This document shows, piece after piece, positions 18,325 to 37,220 of a DNA stretch of 37,220 nt (positions are counted from its first letter, which is position 1; every line of letters starts with the position of its first letter). The DNA is from a virus. Taxonomy: Duplodnaviria > Heunggongvirae > Uroviricota > Caudoviricetes. The notes beneath the pieces were generated by a model. It was not told the origin of the DNA. It searched no databases and worked only from the letters and a program-made list of their open reading frames with translations. The translations under genes were made by a program, and so were the position numbers. Where the stretch lies: the IMG/VR virus record IMGVR_UViG_2718218102_000005, positions 1 to 37,220 of that record. The stretch is one strand, 5' to 3'.

Positions 18325-18824
18325 GACTCGATGATTTTCAGAAACGGGTTAGTGGCTTTCTTCTGCCCCGCCAGGCCAATCAGACGCTGGCGGCTGCTGG
18401 GGTCGAGTCCGAGCATTGCCCCCGTGCTGCTCATCTCGGACTCCTGTTCTTTCTTGGCGGTCAGCTCCGGGTTTTTGACCATACCGCCCATTGCACCGGT
18501 AATGGTGTTGCCCTGGCTGGCAATATTTTTCACGGCACGTCGCCAGAACTCATAGGCCACGCACCACCGCTCAAGCACCGCGAGGTCAGTCACGCACAGC
18601 AGGCCCTGACCGCAGAGTTCTTTGGTTGTCAGTTGCCACATGATCGTGGCGAGAGGGAGATCTTCTTCAGCGAACCACTCCGGTGGCTCAACACCTTTGA
18701 TGGGCGTAAAAACAGGTTCATCTTTATTCAGGGCTCGCTTGCCGGGGTTTCCGGCCAGCGCCTTGCGCGCCGTTGGCTTGGGGCGACGCCCGGAACGCCC
18801 CGCCGTTCCAGCCATATGCGGCAC
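18321..18824 (-). CDS. Terminase small subunit (P27-family-like)
   Basis: 167-aa ORF immediately upstream of TerL; track start is GTG, the ATG at 18815 ([15 protein letters not shown]...) has an AGGAG SD and is more likely. Confidence 0.75.
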
Positions 18825-18865
18825 TCCTGGTTAAATTTCATTTTTCGCGGGTATAAAAAAACGAT

Positions 18866-18914
18866 GGGGCGGGCAGTCCGGAAGACGTCAGGCTGCAGGG
18901 ATTTGACCCGCCCC
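18866..18914. other. Inverted repeat in the HNH-TerS intergenic region (possible cos / packaging site)
   Basis: ggggcggg (18866-18873) and cccgcccc (18907-18914) flank a 33-bp spacer containing the palindrome gacgtc; HK97-like phages typically place cos between HNH and TerS. Confidence 0.3.
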
Positions 18915-18940
18915 TCCCCTCAGACAGTTGAGAATTATTA

Positions 18941-19291
18941 TCACTTTAACCGTTCACGGGCCGTCTTCGCCTTATGACACGGCCAGCACAGACTCTGCAG
19001 ATTACTGTCAGCATCAGTGCCGCCATGCGCTTTAGGGATGATGTGGTCAACAGTTTTCGCCTCACGCACCACACCAGCACGCAGACATAACTGACACAGG
19101 CCTTTGTCACGCTTCAGAACACGCGCGCGGATACTGTCCCACTTCGAACCGTAGCCGCGCTGATGACGGGATTGTCCAGGTTTGTATTGCTTCCAGCCTT
19201 CGCTTTTGTGGCTTTCGCAGTAGCCTGAAGGGTCAGTAGTGGTATGGCGGCAGCCGCGAACACGGCAGGCTTTCGGGGTTCGTGGCGGCAT
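18941..19291 (-). CDS. HNH endonuclease (terminase-associated)
   Basis: 116-aa ORF with CxxC...H-N-H motif (CQLCLRAG...VDHIIPKAHGGTDADSNLQSLCWPCHKAKT), upstream of TerS. Confidence 0.85.
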   Translation of the reverse strand: MPPRTPKACRVRGCRHTTTDPSGYCESHKSEGWKQYKPGQSRHQRGYGSKWDSIRARVLKRDKGLCQLCLRAGVVREAKTVDHIIPKAHGGTDADSNLQSLCWPCHKAKTARERLK

Positions 19292-19342
19292 TAATGCTTC
19301 CCTTTAAGTTATTACGATGGAACAGACCATAGAAATGGCAAT

Positions 19343-19362
19343 AAAAAACCGCCCGGAGGCGG
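19343..19362 (-). terminator. Short intrinsic terminator between the 106-aa moron and HNH
   Basis: ccgcc-cgga-ggcgg hairpin (19349-19362) preceded on the plus strand by aaaaaa (19343-19348), i.e. a U-run on the minus-strand RNA. Confidence 0.4.
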
Positions 19363-19383
19363 TTCAATTATCATCTCGATAAA

Positions 19384-19704
19384 CTAAATCAGATCACCAA
19401 TGTATTTTGCACTAATTGAAATTTGCATCTGAGGCATTCCGACCACAGATCCATTTAACAGGTAATCACGTCCTCGTTCCTGCAAAGAAAGACTCAATTC
19501 AAAGTTCTTTACCCCAGGGAAAACCGAGGTGACATTTAAATCATGCTGCGATACGCGCAGAATAAGTTGGCTACCGTCAATTTTTCCCTGATACGTAAAA
19601 CCAAAATCTCCGCCGTTTACTGCATTGTTTTTGACAACTACGGTACCATTACCAAAATCACGTTGATTGCTTCTGAAAACAACAAAATAGATACCATCTT
19701 TCAT
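19384..19704 (-). CDS. AT-rich moron: hypothetical 106-aa protein
   Basis: ORF MKDGIYFVVFRSNQRDFGNGTVVVKNN... between the spanin genes and HNH; visibly lower GC than flanks; own terminator downstream; no family recognised. Confidence 0.5.
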   Translation of the reverse strand: MKDGIYFVVFRSNQRDFGNGTVVVKNNAVNGGDFGFTYQGKIDGSQLILRVSQHDLNVTSVFPGVKNFELSLSLQERGRDYLLNGSVVGMPQMQISISAKYIGDLI

Positions 19705-19796
19705 GTGTAAAGCCCTTTAAAAGAGTCACCAAAATCAGGTGCTTTGTATCTATTGGGCCATCACATATCAAATCAAGGAACAAAACAAAGTTAACA

Positions 19797-20066
19797 TCAT
19801 TTTTTTTGCATGATGTGACCACGCTCAACTTCAATCCTTCTGATGTCAGCTTTATCGGTATTACACTGCGCCAATGCAGACAACAAGGCGACATTCAGAT
19901 CTAAGCTCGAGCCCCACGTAAAATGATCAGGTAAATCAGGCTGAGGGGTTTCAGCCGTCAGGCTGGCTGGTAACGGAACTACCGGAACCTGGACGTAAAC
20001 TGTTCGCGTACTTCCGCAACCGGTCAGCAGCGGCAGCAGGCACAGGACGTGAAGCACAATCATCAT
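19797..20066 (-). CDS. Rz1-like o-spanin lipoprotein
   Basis: ORF track 19797-20132; likely start at ATG 20066 (MMIVLHVLCLLPLLTGC..., lipobox LLTGC); Pro-rich; overlaps the Rz-like gene in another frame. Confidence 0.6.
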   Translation of the reverse strand: MMIVLHVLCLLPLLTGCGSTRTVYVQVPVVPLPASLTAETPQPDLPDHFTWGSSLDLNVALLSALAQCNTDKADIRRIEVERGHIMQKK

Positions 20067-20343
20067 CCGCAACAGCCACTTTGATATCTTCCTGGGTTCT
20101 CTGTGACTCCAGTGCGATCTGCTGTTTTGCATGTTGATTCGCCTCCTGAATGATGTTCGTTATTGCCATAGTACGCAGAACATTCGCGGTGATAGCCTCA
20201 GTAGAATCAGCTCGCTGTTCCGCAGCATCAGCACGCTTCTGCTCCTTCAGAAACTTTCCATGATAGTGATTCGCTGACCAGACAAGACCACCAGCGACAC
20301 AAGCAATAAACGTTAAAATGAGCGCCCAATAACTCATCTTCAT
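19951..20343 (-). CDS. Rz-like i-spanin
   Basis: 130-aa ORF with N-terminal TM helix and charged coiled-coil; start overlaps the endolysin stop as ATGA. Confidence 0.7.
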   Translation of the reverse strand: MKMSYWALILTFIACVAGGLVWSANHYHGKFLKEQKRADAAEQRADSTEAITANVLRTMAITNIIQEANQHAKQQIALESQRTQEDIKVAVADDDCASRPVPAAAADRLRKYANSLRPGSGSSVTSQPDG

Positions 20344-20954
20344 ACCAGCAGCGCCGCCCGCGCCTTGTTGTATCGGACCTTACGATCCTCAATACCGTTC
20401 AAACCGCCGTTAATGATGCGCGTAACACGGTTAATATCGGCACCGTAGATCATGCAACCTTTAGAGGTGTAGAACCATGCAGCTGAGCGCGCAGCCTGTA
20501 GTTCCTGTTCCAGTTGTTCAGGTGAAGTCACCAGATCTAACTTCAGCGCCGCGCCACAGATGCGATAATTATGGAGGCCAGTGATTTGAATTAATCCTCT
20601 ACCACGATATTTCCAGCCATCACCTGGTGCTTTGTTACCCAGTCGGTTGCTATACACCAGATTGGCAATAGCATCCTGACGAGCTGCATGTCCGGATGTT
20701 CTGCCAAGGGCATCAGCCTGCTGCTGTGTGATCCTCTTTCCGAACGTCGCCACCAGCGCAGATGGTGTGTAGTTAAAATTTTCAACTACGGCTCTAAACC
20801 CCATCGACTCATGGCCTACCTGAGCGATAAACATTGCCTGATCCGCTGGTGCTGTAATGCCGAATTCCTTCATCGCCGCATCAATGTGCGGAAACCAGCG
20901 CGCAGCCAGCCCGGCGCTAATACCAGCCGCCTTTTGAAATAATTGTTGGTTCAT
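20340..20954 (-). CDS. Endolysin, glycoside hydrolase family 19 (chitinase-like lysozyme)
   Basis: 204-aa ORF with GH19-like motifs (FIAQVGHESMGF, YRGRGLIQITGLHNY). Confidence 0.8.
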   Translation of the reverse strand: MNQQLFQKAAGISAGLAARWFPHIDAAMKEFGITAPADQAMFIAQVGHESMGFRAVVENFNYTPSALVATFGKRITQQQADALGRTSGHAARQDAIANLVYSNRLGNKAPGDGWKYRGRGLIQITGLHNYRICGAALKLDLVTSPEQLEQELQAARSAAWFYTSKGCMIYGADINRVTRIINGGLNGIEDRKVRYNKARAALLV

Positions 20955-21235
20955 TAGTGCCTCAGATGATCAACCAGACGTGCAACGTTGCCTCTGACGG
21001 CCACCAGCACGGAAAGAAAAATAGTGTTCGCCACGATAATGGGCCATGAGGAATGGGGATAAATCCCACAGAGATAGGCCAACGGAACAGCACTGTATGT
21101 AACAGTAATCAGCCAGGCTAAACGTGAAACCCAAGGACGATGCCGCGAATCACCACGACGATAAAACATCAGAGTAATAACAACACAAGCACATAACAGC
21201 GCATTTATAGTTGCTGTCGGGTCATTTAGCTCCAC
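20954..21235 (-). CDS. Small membrane protein (putative holin/antiholin partner)
   Basis: 93-aa ORF with 2-3 hydrophobic segments, between the holin-like gene and endolysin. Confidence 0.45.
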   Translation of the reverse strand: MELNDPTATINALLCACVVITLMFYRRGDSRHRPWVSRLAWLITVTYSAVPLAYLCGIYPHSSWPIIVANTIFLSVLVAVRGNVARLVDHLRH

Positions 21236-21608
21236 CTGAACCTCCCCGGCGCGTTATGAGCGCCACCAGCGAGCCGATATCCTGATTATTCAGGAACGTC
21301 AGGATTTTAACGGCTAAAGCAGAGACGATTACGGCACCAATAGCATCCAGAGGTTTATCACTGTATCCGGTCAAGTTCGCCAGCTTGGAGCCAACCAACC
21401 CAGAGCAAAGAATCCCGGCAATATATGACACGATAAAATATGCCAGTCGGCGCGATGCACTCAGATCTGCTGCTGTTGCTATGTAGAATACAGCCCCTGC
21501 AAATGCGCCAAATACAACGCCGTAATCAGTTCCGGTCAGCAGTCCATAAACACTGGCACCCGTCAGGGCACCACCAGCCAGCCCAGTACCGGAAATCGGA
21601 TCGGACAT
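21222..21608 (-). CDS. Putative holin
   Basis: 128-aa Gly/Ala-rich ORF with several predicted TM helices, first gene of the lysis cassette. Confidence 0.55.
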   Translation of the reverse strand: MSDPISGTGLAGGALTGASVYGLLTGTDYGVVFGAFAGAVFYIATAADLSASRRLAYFIVSYIAGILCSGLVGSKLANLTGYSDKPLDAIGAVIVSALAVKILTFLNNQDIGSLVALITRRGGSGGAK

Positions 21609-21687: not shown

Positions 21688-21945
21688 TCAAATACTACCC
21701 TGTTGATGATTTCTCAGAAGCGAACTTGACTCCCAGGGGAAACTCAACTTTCCGTTAAAACCACCAGCAGACATTCGTTCAATTTCCACAGAAATATCAC
21801 TGAGCCGTTCTTCAAGCTCTGCTTTTTCTTTTACCAGACGGTTATAGCGGCTTAGATGAAGCTTTTGCTGCTCCAGCCAGTCTTCAAGCTGTTCAACAGT
21901 CATACCAGGGTTAAAAAAATATGGCTGCTGCTTTTCGCCCTGCAT
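21688..21945 (-). CDS. Hypothetical protein, first ORF of the late operon
   Basis: ORF track 21688-22014; start refined to ATG 21945 (MQGEKQQPYFFNPGMTVEQLEDW..., GGAGG SD 7 nt upstream) because the track extension runs through the terminator hairpin. Confidence 0.4.
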   Translation of the reverse strand: MQGEKQQPYFFNPGMTVEQLEDWLEQQKLHLSRYNRLVKEKAELEERLSDISVEIERMSAGGFNGKLSFPWESSSLLRNHQQGSI

Positions 21946-21960
21946 TATTGACCTCCAGAA

Positions 21961-21985
21961 AAGCAAAAACCCCGCCGAAGCGAGG
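21961..21985 (-). terminator. tR'-like intrinsic terminator of the late leader
   Basis: On the minus-strand RNA: CCUCGC-UUCG-GCGGGG (6-bp stem with one G.U pair, UUCG loop) followed by UUUUUGCUU; about 8 nt upstream of the SD of the first late ORF. Confidence 0.45.
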
Positions 21986-22035
21986 TTTGTTATGATTTCG
22001 TTAACGGCAGACATACAAAGCCCATCGTTAGGAGA

Positions 22036-22095: not shown

Positions 22096-22848
22096 TTATC
22101 TTGTCACTTTTCTCAATTGTGTCTCTGCATATGCTTCTTCCTGCCAGCACTTTGTAACCAGTTTATCAATGACATCTGCATATCCTTTGTACCACTGATA
22201 ATCCGTCAGGTCCGGTACCAGCTTCTGGACATGATGCCGCGCCAGTGTGGTTGGTAAACGGCTAAACCGGTTTCCATTGCAACGCCCACAAATCTTATAA
22301 ACAGGCGCACCATGAAGCCGGGTTCTTTTTTCATCCAGTACAATACCTTTCCCCTTACACCCTCTACACGCTGTGCTGACTTCTCCCTTACCATGACAAT
22401 GCTGACATAGTTCCTTCACCCACTCTTCCTTGATAACAGATTCCCCGCTTCTGGAGTGTTTCACCACTTCGCGCAATACATTATGAAATCCAGTACCAGC
22501 ACAATGCTCACAGCGAGCCTTACTTGCCGCAGACCTGGAATAATCAGCAAAGGCAAAATTCACAAGGTAAGGAATGATCTGTAGCCGGGTTTCTTCACTC
22601 AATTTATTCAATGTCGGGTTATCCAGTGCCATCGCGTAATTGAGCAGACCTTCAATCGCAAACTGAGGATCCTGAACACCAACTTTTGCCAGGAATAAGG
22701 CAAACCCAAGCGGTGCTTTCGACTGCACCATCCCCTGCGCAGCCATCACATCCGTAATTGTTAAACCACCAGAGCCTGTCGCCGGTGCGTCATCGCTCAG
22801 TTTTGGAGATTTCGGGGAGTAATATTTCGGTAAGGCTTCAAGGTTCAT
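22096..22848 (-). CDS. Late-gene antitermination protein Q (QuuQ-like)
   Basis: 250-aa ORF with several CxxC zinc-finger motifs (CEHCAGTG, CQHCHGKG, CRGCKGKG, CGRCNGN); sits immediately upstream of the late promoter and lysis cassette. Confidence 0.75.
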   Translation of the reverse strand: MNLEALPKYYSPKSPKLSDDAPATGSGGLTITDVMAAQGMVQSKAPLGFALFLAKVGVQDPQFAIEGLLNYAMALDNPTLNKLSEETRLQIIPYLVNFAFADYSRSAASKARCEHCAGTGFHNVLREVVKHSRSGESVIKEEWVKELCQHCHGKGEVSTACRGCKGKGIVLDEKRTRLHGAPVYKICGRCNGNRFSRLPTTLARHHVQKLVPDLTDYQWYKGYADVIDKLVTKCWQEEAYAETQLRKVTR

Positions 22849-26177: not shown

Positions 26178-27170
26178 TCACCCCCTGAATCCTGCCGGGA
26201 TCTGGCTGTAGTCCACGTTGTCGTAACTGGATTTGAAATACGGGTCTTCGCGTTTTTCTGTGTATGTGCTGACGGACGGCGATAAGCGCAGGGAAAGCTC
26301 ATCCCATTTTTCCCGCAGCTTCGACGGACTGAGCACGTTACGGCACCAGAACGGATCGCGGCTGACGCGGCTGTACATCTCGCAGATTTGTTTGTGAGTA
26401 CGACCATCCTGCACACACATCAGGCGAATTTCGTTTGCCCAGGCTGTCCAGTTAGGTTCTTTGGGACGAACCACCTCGCCGTCACATTCGGCGGCCTGCT
26501 CGTACAGGGCGATGATTTTTTTCCAGAGCCACTGTGCGCAGGTCAAATCATCCTGCGTTCCCCACTGGCGCTTTTTAGGACTGAATACAACCGCATCAGG
26601 ATGGCGAGTTAAAAACTCCTGTTCAGCCGTCTGCGTGTCCGGTTGCGAAGCGTCCGGACGAGAAGAGGTTTTATTCTCTGTAGTAATCTCTGTTGTATTC
26701 TCTGTAAGATCATTGGGCCATTTTGACCCGATGACAGCGTGTCGTTTTGAACCAATGGATCGTATCATTTTGCGCCCATCCATCAGGTCACTTTGACCCG
26801 ATGGAGAAGTGCATTTTGACCTGATGGATTCGTTCACTTTGACCTCTTCTAAAAGCTCACTTTCATAGTTGATCGTGTAGAAGTTGGTCATGTCACGCTT
26901 CGATTTATTGAGTTGCTCGCGACGCAAAACCCCAAGTGATTTCAGGCTTGCAAATGTGCGTTTCAGAGTGGACTCTGACCAGAACGGAAACTGCTCCAGC
27001 CACTGTTCTGTCGTGTTATAAACCCAGCGAATTCCGCCATGCTCAGTGCCTGAATTCGTTTCATTCAGCCAGTAATGAAGCTGCTGCAACACAATTGCCT
27101 CATTCAGACCAATACGGCATGCAAGATCACGATTTATCACAATGGGCTGGGATGTCATTAACAGGCTCAT
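26178..27170 (-). CDS. Replication initiation protein, lambda O-like, with internal origin
   Basis: 330-aa ORF downstream of the cro/cII-like genes; an iteron array lies inside the coding sequence in a low-complexity linker, as in lambda O / ori-lambda. Confidence 0.65.
   Translation of the reverse strand: MSLLMTSQPIVINRDLACRIGLNEAIVLQQLHYWLNETNSGTEHGGIRWVYNTTEQWLEQFPFWSESTLKRTFASLKSLGVLRREQLNKSKRDMTNFYTINYESELLEEVKVNESIRSKCTSPSGQSDLMDGRKMIRSIGSKRHAVIGSKWPNDLTENTTEITTENKTSSRPDASQPDTQTAEQEFLTRHPDAVVFSPKKRQWGTQDDLTCAQWLWKKIIALYEQAAECDGEVVRPKEPNWTAWANEIRLMCVQDGRTHKQICEMYSRVSRDPFWCRNVLSPSKLREKWDELSLRLSPSVSTYTEKREDPYFKSSYDNVDYSQIPAGFRG
26718..26850. repeat. Origin iterons: six direct repeats (~14 bp core TTTTGACCCGATGG, ~23-24 bp period) inside the O-like gene
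   Basis: Read directly: ttttgacccgatg (26721), ttttgaaccaatgg (26745), ttttgcgcccatcc (26768), ctttgacccgatgg (26791), ttttgacctgatgg (26815), ctttgacctc (26837), followed by an AT-richer stretch. Confidence 0.65.
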
Positions 27171-27518
27171 GACCGACCTCTATTTCCCTGAATTTACGAC
27201 GAAACTGTTCGAGCGGACTGAAGCATTCATGCTCATAGCCTTCGCGGAGGTAGATAACACGTTGTGTTTCCGGCTCCCAACGAATGACTCTGACGGGCAC
27301 TCCGTAGTGATCTTTGAACCAGCGGTTAACTTGTCGCAAAGGACTGTCTCCTTCTGCCGGTTGAAATCACCCACAGCCCACTCTGCAAAGCTGTGGGTTA
27401 CAATTTCCCTGTCACCTGGTACATTCACTGCATAGCAATACTCCACCTTCGCTTTTCCACCCGGTACAGGAAGCGCAATCAGTTGCGAGCGACGGTAGTG
27501 TGTTGTTAAACTGTTCAT
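27127..27518 (-). CDS. Hypothetical gene with interrupted reading frame (frameshift or indel)
   Basis: ATG at 27518 overlaps the upstream stop as ATGA, and its first ~55 codons look protein-like; the track ORF then degrades to low complexity, while a second frame (27339-27127, no ATG) encodes a protein-like C-terminal part. Confidence 0.4.
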
Positions 27519-28480: not shown

Positions 28481-29167
28481 GTGAAAACATTGGCAGAAAG
28501 ACTAAAAAGCGAAAGAGAAAAAGCAGGAATGAGTCAGGCGCAACTAGCTGAAAAAATTGGGCTTTCACAACAATCCGTAGCGAAAATCGAGAATGGAGAA
28601 ACTCAACAGCCTCGGAAAATTAAAGAGATTGCTAAAGTGTTAGGGGTTTCTCAAAAGTGGTTGCAATTGGGCATTGAGGATAACGCGTCTTTCCCAGACC
28701 TTGTTGTAAAGGAGGCTGAAAGTACAGCATTAGATCCTGACATTTTTGCAAACATTCCAGTCCTAGATGTCGAGTTATCAGCGGGTAATGGATGTTTGGC
28801 TGAAATAGTTGAATCAACTGTAGACTGGTTCCCGCTAAGAAGGATTGATTTAAGAAAAGCTGGTGTATGTGTCTCCAATGCAAAGATCGTAAAAATTTGG
28901 GGCAATAGTTTACTACCTGTACTTAACAATGGAGATTTTGTTGCTGTTGATGTTTCCCAAACGGTTCCTATTCGTGATGGGGATCTTTATGCCATACGTG
29001 ATGGCGTATTACTTAGAGTTAAAATATTGATCAATTTACCTGACGGTGGTCTGATTCTAAGAAGTTTCAATAAAGATGAGTATCCAGATGAAATACTCAC
29101 CTTCGAAGATAGGCGTTCCAGAATTCACGTTATAGGTAGAGTATTCTGGTCATCGCGCACTTGGTAA
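28481..29167 (+). CDS. CI-type repressor (HTH-XRE N-terminus + S24 LexA-like peptidase C-terminus)
   Basis: 228 aa, GTG start at 28481 with SD gaggggg; N-terminal HTH (MSQAQLAEKIGLSQQSVAKIENGE), candidate Ala-Gly cleavage site (ELSAGNG) and Ser/Lys dyad context (IWGNSLLP ... LRVKIL). Confidence 0.85.
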   Translation: MKTLAERLKSEREKAGMSQAQLAEKIGLSQQSVAKIENGETQQPRKIKEIAKVLGVSQKWLQLGIEDNASFPDLVVKEAESTALDPDIFANIPVLDVELSAGNGCLAEIVESTVDWFPLRRIDLRKAGVCVSNAKIVKIWGNSLLPVLNNGDFVAVDVSQTVPIRDGDLYAIRDGVLLRVKILINLPDGGLILRSFNKDEYPDEILTFEDRRSRIHVIGRVFWSSRTW

Positions 29168-29482: not shown

Positions 29483-29704
29483 ATGTGTAAGAGAGCGCAA
29501 ATGAACCGTTATTTCACATGCTCGTTTTGTGGCGCAAACGAGCTGCAGGCAAAAAAAATCATCGCCAAAGGCGGAAAAGATGAAGTTGCTATCTGCTCTG
29601 AGTGCGTAGTCTTGTGTGTCTGGGCATTAATCAATATCAGCACAACTATTCAGTTCACACCAAATGAGAATGCGCCTTTAGATGCGCGGAAATCTGGAGG
29701 TTAA
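29483..29704 (+). CDS. Standalone ClpX-type C4 zinc-finger (ZBD-like) mini-protein
   Basis: 73 aa (67 aa if started at ATG 29501); YFTCSFCGANELQAKKIIAKGGKDEVAICSECVVLC compares closely with the ClpX N-terminal zinc-binding domain ([33 protein letters not shown], from memory); no AAA+ module follows. First gene after PL. Confidence 0.6.
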   Translation: MCKRAQMNRYFTCSFCGANELQAKKIIAKGGKDEVAICSECVVLCVWALINISTTIQFTPNENAPLDARKSGG

Positions 29705-36231: not shown

Positions 36232-36651
36232 TTACTCATCATCAATAGATGATACGCAATATTTATTTTTAAATTTAAGGTTCTTTGGCGTAACTTCATC
36301 AGATATATCAAAACCGTCCAGAATTCTATTGAATGTAGCTTCTGGCATATCATCATGAACAGAAATCTCACCCGATCGCTGCTTTCTAACCATGTTATCC
36401 ACTCGCCAAATTATAGCTTCAGCGTAAACAACATAACTTGGATGCTTGATAAAGCGATGATCACCAGAATTCAAGACGCAAGACGGATCGTGGGGGACAC
36501 CATCCTTGATACTAGAAATATTAACAACTAAAACACAATAACAATCGTTAACGGGGTAATAAACAGGATCATTACAAATCACATGAAGATGATTGCATGG
36601 CCCTGTTGGGGCAAGCACAGTTCCTTTCCTGTATGGCTGATAATCCGTCAT
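36232..36651 (-). CDS. Unrecognised 139-aa protein, ATGA-coupled to the Panacea-domain gene (candidate toxin/effector)
   Basis: ATG at 36651 overlaps the upstream stop as ATGA; His/Cys/Asp-rich (CNHLH, DCYC, HDPSC, GDH); visibly AT-rich; no family recognised. Confidence 0.5.
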   Translation of the reverse strand: MTDYQPYRKGTVLAPTGPCNHLHVICNDPVYYPVNDCYCVLVVNISSIKDGVPHDPSCVLNSGDHRFIKHPSYVVYAEAIIWRVDNMVRKQRSGEISVHDDMPEATFNRILDGFDISDEVTPKNLKFKNKYCVSSIDDE

Positions 36652-37220
36652 GATAATTGCAAAGAAAATTCCTTAAGTTTCTGAGATTCTTCCATTTTGC
36701 CAATTATATGATTAGCCTCATCCTCGCTTTTACCCTCACTGATCAGCATTTCTTTCAGATCTATAGGCTTACGGGAATAGCCGGGATCGTGCCACTCTGG
36801 ACAAACGCTTTCTAAATGCGTCATGTTTGCGAGATCAAATCGGTTCATATGCCCATACAGAGAATAGATTTCATCTAAAATCCGGATATCTGCACGGCTC
36901 AACTCATCAAAGACCTCGTCTGCATCCATTTCCCTCGGATCTGAACGCAACAACACATCATGCCCGTTCGTCTCTATCAAGTTGTACCAGTAGTCACCAA
37001 TGCCTTCAGCCTTACCACGAATCAAGTTCAGCGTATTCGACATGACTGGTCCAAATTTCATAGAGTAAAGGCTATCTTCGCCGATCATCCTGCCATGCTT
37101 CAAAATCGACTTGCGGTTAGACAGATAGAGCAGCTTCATCAGTTTCAGATATGCCATGCGCCCACCTCGCTTAAGAAGTAGGTATGCAGCCATTTGAGCT
37201 ACTTTTTCTTCGCAAAACAT
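36648..37220 (-). CDS. Panacea-domain (DUF4065) antitoxin-like protein, possibly 5'-truncated by window edge
   Basis: 190 aa within the window; LKLMKLLYLSNRKSILKHGRMIGEDSLYSMKFGPVMSNT matches the DUF4065/Panacea signature as I recall it (SocA/PanA-like KLQKLLYY...GPV); the ATG at 37220 may or may not be the true start. Confidence 0.55.
   Translation of the reverse strand: MFCEEKVAQMAAYLLLKRGGRMAYLKLMKLLYLSNRKSILKHGRMIGEDSLYSMKFGPVMSNTLNLIRGKAEGIGDYWYNLIETNGHDVLLRSDPREMDADEVFDELSRADIRILDEIYSLYGHMNRFDLANMTHLESVCPEWHDPGYSRKPIDLKEMLISEGKSEDEANHIIGKMEESQKLKEFSLQLS

Follow-up and report, generated by a model that had tools for sequence, protein, structure and literature searches.

A GrlR-family beta-barrel protein encoded by a moron cassette at the Rz1-HNH junction of an SfV/SfI-like Escherichia coli prophage

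The 37,220-nucleotide stretch of viral DNA analysed here (hereafter, the window) carries a self-contained moron cassette that entered a temperate, SfV/SfI-like E. coli phage by recombination at the Rz1-HNH junction. It has three parts, namely a leader containing a weak promoter-like element, a gene for a 106-aa protein, and an intrinsic terminator. By sequence and by fold, the protein is a full-length member of the GrlR family, a cytoplasmic eight-stranded beta-barrel from a large clade that is carried by phages and set apart from the LEE regulator GrlR. The gene had already been catalogued in RefSeq and in PHROG 2483, and its fold was solved through GrlR. The point to retain is that the family label misleads, as the motif that binds GrlA is missing from the clade and no GrlA gene lies in the vicinity. 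The gene and its borders are as follows.

18941..19291, minus strand: HNH endonuclease gene, the downstream border of the slot (ORF; RefSeq annotation)
19384..19704, minus strand: coding sequence for the GrlR-family eight-stranded beta-barrel protein, 106 aa (ATG start; identical to WP_000651450.1; PHROG 2483)
19705..19796, minus strand: non-coding leader of 92 bp, from the Rz1 stop to the ATG (sequence)
19797..20132, minus strand: Rz1/LysC o-spanin gene, lipobox LLTGC (ORF translation; RefSeq annotation of the identical region)

The GrlR-like ORF lies on the same strand as the late genes. Rz1/LysC, which forms the upstream border of the slot, is the final gene of the lysis cassette and is embedded in Rz (19951..20343); further upstream are a GH19 endolysin, two holin-family genes, a 108-aa ORF, and a Q-type antiterminator. 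On the other side, the HNH gene begins at 19291 and is followed by a P27-family small terminase and then the large terminase. The GC content of 19343-19796 is 39.0%, which ranks at the 3.3rd percentile of windows of equal size, compared with 50.6% for the window, 57.4% for the terS-HNH flank, and 50.4% for the Rz1-endolysin flank, and GC3 is 0.35 in the ORF versus 0.56 to 0.68 in the HNH, terS, and terL genes. These values bear out the initial annotation, which had described an ORF of 106 aa, AT-rich relative to its flanks, with approximately 90 bp of non-coding DNA upstream. Because the protein has 91 homologues (best E = 6e-58) and the family comprises 489 clusters at 50% identity in a library of 1.8 billion proteins, a chance ORF is excluded and the gene is real.

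The initial annotation had assigned no family to this protein, and that statement proved wrong. A Pfam search returned GrlR (PF16518) over the full length at E = 6.6e-6, with a score of 26.7 bits that falls 0.1 bit under the gathering score of 26.8. The NCBIfam GrlR model (NF010652) matched at E = 2.4e-10 and 40.5 bits, far from its equivalog cut-off of 205, and PHROGs gave phrog_2483 (E = 6e-53), a group in the category 'unknown function'. A phmmer search against PDB sequences recovered GrlR (2ovs_A and 4kt5_A, E = 1.6e-10) across residues 1 to 105. RefSeq names the identical protein, WP_000651450.1, 'GrlR family regulatory protein'. Conversely, a profile built from the phage clade recovered the LEE-GrlR representative P0191, which is 84% identical to GrlR, at E = 3.5e-13 in the 1.8-billion-protein library.

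Structure prediction, which the initial annotation had put forward as a check, led to the same family. The AlphaFold2 model, computed with 23 homologues, has eight strands, a mean pLDDT of 93.5, and a pTM of 0.84. In Foldseek comparisons with the PDB, the top three matches were all GrlR chains (TM 0.90 to 0.91, rmsd 1.7 to 1.9 Å, 28% identity), the best being 4kt5_B, on which the model superposes with a TM of 0.91 and an rmsd of 1.7 Å. The next match after GrlR, at E = 6e-3, was five orders of magnitude behind, and the BFVD viral fold library held nothing below E = 9e-3. An N-terminal signature, MKDGIY..F...G.G....NGGD...Y.G, is common to the whole family and reads MKDGIY...F...G.G....(N/T)GGD...YQG in the comparison with LEE GrlR, and the most conserved residues are glycines and the inward-facing aromatics Tyr-6, Phe-10, and Tyr-38.

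Identical DNA is present in Escherichia phage SKA5 and in 53 of the 5426 complete E. coli genomes, including that of ETEC H10407, and it is in these genomes that RefSeq gives the protein its GrlR-family name; some of the carriers are STEC. Further homologues occur in Serratia, Pantoea, Kosakonia, and Arsenophonus. The closest described group, PHROG 2483 with its RefSeq counterparts (among them the 'negative regulator' of Klebsiella phage ST340-VIM1phi10.1 and the SKA5 protein), consists of proteins of 106 to 107 aa that are 50 to 100% identical. Their genes, too, are found between Rz1 and the terminase or in other slots of the late operon, with a terminator behind them, and there is no substantive difference from the gene of the window. 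One metagenomic representative (P0200, 211 aa) carries a STAS-like partner-switching domain, DUF4325 (PF14213, E = 3e-10), fused to the GrlR domain. No other fusion observed among family members was informative. We found no study of any phage GrlR homologue in the searchable literature, and homologues of GrlR are described as having no assigned function (PMC9979310).

The moron status of the cassette is evident from related phages in which it is missing. The Rz1 stop is followed after 26 bp by the HNH start in both SfV and an E. coli E423 prophage, representing the empty site, compared with 505 bp in the window. Alignment of the window with these two relatives delimited the inserted segment.

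19292..19828: block absent from the empty-site relatives SfV and E423

Its left edge is the HNH start codon, and its right edge lies approximately 10 codons inside the 3' end of Rz1. Other relatives are occupied at the same place by different genes: an unrelated 145-aa ORF in FORC_081, an unrelated 113-aa ORF on the opposite strand in RX24, an unrelated 62-aa ORF in ETEC1703, and an unrelated 168-aa ORF in phage vB_EcoM-689R6, while 2014C-3075 carries a GrlR-family allele that is strongly diverged and preceded by a nearly identical leader. Presence or absence and cargo polymorphism thus occur at precisely the junction between the lysis cassette and the HNH and terminase genes where the initial annotation had placed a moron.

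In E. coli prophages of this type, the Rz1-HNH junction is a hot spot for cargo, with at least four other unrelated small ORFs. None of these alternative cargos had a Pfam or a PADLOC match. Their positions in the respective loci are listed below.

L006, 3150-3656: other-cargo ORF at the Rz1-HNH junction
L008, 575-1012: other-cargo ORF at the Rz1-HNH junction
L009, 955-1296: other-cargo ORF at the Rz1-HNH junction
L010, 806-994: other-cargo ORF at the Rz1-HNH junction

The cassette resembles the classical lambdoid morons (bor and lom of lambda, gp15 of HK97, in the sense of the Hendrix/Juhala definition) in being an extra gene present in some members of a collinear group of phages, with a deviant base composition and a terminator of its own. 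It differs from them in that its product is a cytoplasmic barrel and not a lipoprotein or a protein of the outer membrane, and in having no demonstrable canonical promoter. Lambda bor occupies the same neighbourhood, just after Rz/Rz1, but on the strand opposite to the late genes, whereas the gene of the window is co-oriented with them, as had been pointed out from the sequence. Bor itself was considered and rejected: the N-terminus, MKDGIYFVVF, contains neither a lipobox nor a signal peptide, Pfam returned GrlR alone, and the gene is on the late strand. The earlier remark that the protein is not Bor-like therefore stands.

Since the gene lies within the late operon in the same orientation, and the family sits most often at the lysis-terminase junction, the protein could be conceived as a dispensable helper of lysis or packaging that acts on lysis timing or cos cleavage. 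We regard this as very improbable. Near relatives that share the Rz1, HNH, and terminase genes are entirely without the gene; in other phages it precedes the holin or lies within the tail region; some copies are found on chromosomes away from any phage genes; and its composition is foreign to the operon. The first two of these observations also exclude a conserved lysis or packaging accessory protein, the finding that the initial annotation had named as speaking against a moron.

The cassette ends in a small but strong terminator on the minus strand, whose presence the initial annotation had noted.

19340..19365, minus strand: intrinsic terminator, GAACCGCC-TCCG-GGCGGTTT followed by a T-run

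The GC-rich stem (19365..19346) has 8 pairs and a 4-nt loop, is followed by the T-run, and begins 18 nt after the stop codon. Folded as RNA, the 71-nt terminator region reached -24.2 kcal/mol (z = -4.17), and none of 200 shuffled sequences folded as well. A search of 18800-20400 against Rfam gave only a sub-threshold chance match over the terminator. In five of six other loci that were inspected, an intrinsic terminator on the same strand likewise follows the homologous gene.

A consensus scan found no canonical sigma-70 promoter in the 92-bp leader or upstream of six homologues. Aligning the leader of the window with five homologous leaders (from Escherichia, Scandinavium, Leclercia, and a MAG) revealed conservation in four blocks, namely TTGAwT, wATArn 16 nt downstream of it, a hairpin AGCAyC...GGTG, and the Shine-Dalgarno sequence. 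The corresponding elements of the window, as read from this alignment, are as follows.

19776-19771 and 19754-19749, minus strand: weak promoter-like pair, TTGATT and AATAGA, separated by 16 nt
19743-19724, minus strand: short hairpin, AGCACC/GGTGaCT
19717-19713, minus strand: Shine-Dalgarno sequence, AAGGG

Although its sequence is conserved, the hairpin shows no significant stability (z -1.7). In five other lineages (loci L002, L015, L020, L030, and L034), a perfect TATAAT precedes the ATG by approximately 35 to 45 nt. A different conserved hairpin, GCTGA-N4-TCAGC, precedes the Shine-Dalgarno sequence in six loci (L003, L004, L012, L018, L025, and L036). Judged by these alignments, the leaders of GrlR-like cassettes seem to be under constraint.

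Polymerase modified by Q ignores terminators. A terminator that travels with the gene would therefore be useful only for transcripts that are started independently, and, as far as sequence can indicate, autonomous transcription of the GrlR-like gene is plausible. As the gene is co-oriented with the late genes downstream of Q, its product would be made in lytic growth by read-through, and the conserved terminator suggests additional transcription of its own in the lysogen, presumably at a low or regulated level.

The family name invites the reading that the protein is a true GrlR, which would repress type III secretion through GrlA in LEE-positive hosts; besides the name, the shared fold and the STEC among the carrier strains agree with it. 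As a dimeric barrel, GrlR engages the HTH of GrlA; a surface EDED motif (Glu-46 to Asp-49) is needed for GrlA binding and repression, and GrlR is strongly acidic, with a pI of 4.83 that is complementary to basic GrlA (PMC1868957). The similarities extend to full-length homology at 28 to 30% identity, the same eight-stranded barrel, a small cytoplasmic protein with no DNA-binding motif, and a partly kept hydrophobic dimer core. The GrlR dimer-core positions Ile-7, Ile-23, Ile-25, Val-39, and Ile-107 correspond to Ile-5, Thr-21, Val-23, Thr-37, and Ile-102 in the protein of the window; three of the five (Ile-5, Val-23, and Ile-102) are thus kept as hydrophobic residues that are invariant or nearly so in the clade, while two are Thr.

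The features that connect GrlR with GrlA are, in contrast, missing. GrlR has 123 aa compared with 106 aa here, and its acidic EDED loop is absent, being aligned to '-GSQ' in the protein of the window with a one-residue deletion. This protein has a pI of 8.03, with 9 acidic and 10 basic residues, versus 4.73 for the aligned part of GrlR. Throughout the phage clade, the surface loop that binds GrlA in GrlR is variable and net charge is not conserved; only 12 of 219 family members, GrlR and its representative included, have at least three acidic residues at the EDED loop. A midpoint-rooted NJ tree, which separates the clades and cannot say which is ancestral, placed GrlR in a clade of approximately 10 representatives, apart from the clade of 77 that holds the protein of the window.

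Genomic location gave the same picture. GrlR is encoded with GrlA in the grlRA operon of the LEE, whereas the gene studied here lies in a prophage late operon, at the junction of Rz1 with the HNH and terminase genes and not in a LEE or T3SS gene cluster, and has no grlA partner gene. The CaiF_GrlA domain (PF07180) had no match in the 20 regulator-sized ORFs of the window, and the RefSeq annotation of the H10407 prophage contains no GrlA/CaiF gene. Searches with CaiF and with GrlA residues 18-76 (phmmer and hmmsearch) across 4338 reading frames from the window and 38 related loci gave nothing below E = 0.3, with a sensitivity for very distant HTH relatives that is limited because the CaiF query was validated solely by its match to the GrlA chain 4kt5_C (E = 0.001).

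On these comparisons, the protein is a member of the GrlR family and not an orthologue of GrlR, and a role as a true GrlR is scarcely credible, given the lost EDED motif, the basic rather than acidic pI, the NCBIfam score far under the equivalog cut-off, the separate clade, and the lack of a GrlA gene nearby. The carriers also include ETEC H10407 and genera such as Serratia, Pantoea, Kosakonia, and Arsenophonus, which are presumably LEE-negative, so that the hosts are apparently mostly without the LEE. A clade with neither the EDED motif nor a GrlA gene, in hosts that presumably for the most part have no LEE, gives reason not to take the annotation 'T3SS negative regulator' on these phages for a virulence function.

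As to what the protein does instead, the most likely mechanism by analogy with GrlR, which we hold tentatively and at somewhat less than an even chance, would be that of a barrel, probably dimeric, that sequesters or antagonises a regulator by stoichiometric protein binding, the partner being a host or phage protein other than GrlA. Sequestering is favoured because protein binding is the sole activity demonstrated for this fold and because the dimer core is partly kept. The fusion of the GrlR domain to a STAS-like partner-switching domain in P0200, a single case, counts for this model. Against it count the lack of a consistently co-located gene, the variability of the GrlA-type loop in the clade, and the fact that the conserved glycines and inward aromatics could represent either the core of the fold or a ligand pocket. 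In a K-12 background without the LEE, GrlR also acts as a repressor of LEE promoters with no need of GrlA or H-NS (PMC9979310), which implies that the GrlR fold has at least one further target.

The main rival to a protein-sequestering barrel is a ligand-binding role of its cavity, in which a small hydrophobic molecule or a nucleotide-type signal would be bound by a carrier, a sensor, or a 'sponge'. In the GrlR crystal, the internal hydrophobic cavity held Triton X-100, and the authors proposed a small hydrophobic ligand (PMC1868957). With the inward or outward register of the strands taken from the published GrlR interface residues, the most conserved side chains of the protein, Tyr-6, Val-8, Phe-10, and Tyr-38, fall on the inward side of strands 1 and 4. 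In a barrel of 106 aa, however, inward residues are simply the folding core too. Weak fold matches (TM 0.4 to 0.57) to lipocalins including siderocalin, to fatty-acid-binding proteins, and to the cyclic-dinucleotide receptor barrel of Cap15 point in the same direction as the cavity. These calycin-like barrels, the C-terminal barrel of Cap15 among them, share the eight-stranded antiparallel architecture with a potential internal pocket, but the structural similarity is slight, identity is 6 to 14%, and there is no sequence relationship. All structural matches other than GrlR were weak (E of at least 6e-3), neither BFVD nor PADLOC gave a match, and binding of a ligand is not the activity that experiments have shown for the fold. 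We therefore consider a ligand-binding barrel unlikely.

Homologues elsewhere show the same moron behaviour. The gene lies between Rz1 and the terminase in phages of Klebsiella, Serratia, and Pantoea, between Q and the holin in phage Pm34 and a Salmonella prophage, and among the tail genes in Acinetobacter phage qsb1. In all phage contexts that were examined, it is co-oriented with the late genes, and the AT content of the ORF exceeds that of its flanks at 18 of 19 homologous loci, by a mean of 6.6 points. In Pectobacterium, the homologue adjoins a lone Rz-type remnant and was retained after prophage decay, and some homologues are chromosomal with no phage genes nearby. A scan of genome contigs yielded 12 loci, too few for statistics. 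Among the 105 ORFs flanking GrlR-like genes in 12 species genomes, the recurrent neighbours within the best 25 of 69 families were phage late genes, and no specific partner gene stood consistently beside the GrlR-like genes in these 12 genomes and 25 of 69 families. The late-operon moron slots of unrelated temperate phages in many Enterobacterales are thus recurrently occupied by relatives of the gene. That the family is widespread in moron slots and was kept after prophage decay suggests a selectable benefit.

One chromosomal locus, in A. baumannii (L012, 6001-10933), has its GrlR-like gene convergent with a TetR regulator gene and adjoining VgrG and a Tli4-type T6SS immunity gene.

Such a benefit might lie in conflict, with the protein serving as an orphan immunity factor against an interbacterial toxin or in counter-defence or superinfection exclusion, thereby protecting the lysogen or the infecting phage. 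The slots in question are typical for cargo and are also home to other small genes without an assigned family, the A. baumannii homologue sits beside an immunity gene, two Rap1a immunity-domain proteins occur among the 105 neighbours in the 12 genomes, and the Pectobacterium copy outlasted its prophage. Yet none of the loci contains a toxin next to the gene, the Rap1a genes do not directly adjoin it, 0 families of PADLOC-DB matched at E <= 1, no link between GrlR and immunity proteins was found in the literature, and most copies lie in plain late operons. A conflict-system function is accordingly improbable in our estimation, and the narrower idea of an immunity protein was set aside as unsupported by immediate neighbours or by the literature.

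Returning to the sequestering barrel, a broader scheme can be outlined, which we offer as speculative and well short of likely. Phage GrlR-like barrels, with their hundreds of clusters, would form a large family of late-operon morons with a general activity, for which sequestering a DNA-binding protein of the host or of a rival phage and soaking up a small signalling molecule are candidates. LEE GrlR would be a specialised offshoot of this family that gained the EDED loop and the partner GrlA, and its GrlA-independent repression would be the shared ancestral activity. The gene on its own matters little and its interest is modest; the partner of its product, once found, could also explain the GrlA-independent repression by GrlR.

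Several other genes of the window deserve a brief description. A second AT-rich ORF (21688-22014, minus strand, 108 aa, 44% GC) lies between the Q antiterminator (22096-22848) and a holin gene (21222-21608), and it had no Pfam and no PADLOC match. In other phages, this Q-holin slot is where Stx and some GrlR-like genes sit. In H10407, RefSeq calls a shorter hypothetical protein of 85 aa at the corresponding place.

The H10407 prophage (L001), otherwise approximately 98% identical to the window, carries a PerC-family regulator gene at 26851-27345. The window is without this gene at the equivalent position (~26098), where L001 26866-27262 is left out of the blast alignment. In EPEC and EHEC, ler is activated by PerC/Pch proteins.

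Just downstream of a CI-like repressor gene (28481-29167), a plus-strand gene (29483-29704) encodes a protein of 73 aa that has a ClpX-type C4 zinc finger (PF06689, E = 6.7e-11) and nothing else, and that may modulate ClpX. GrlR itself is a ClpXP substrate (PMC9979310).

At the prophage end, the segment 36232-37220 contains two minus-strand genes, one for a SocA/Panacea antitoxin-domain protein (36648-37220; PF13274, E = 1.8e-18) and, after it, a 139-aa ORF without a family (36232-36651); the two likely constitute a toxin-antitoxin or defence pair.
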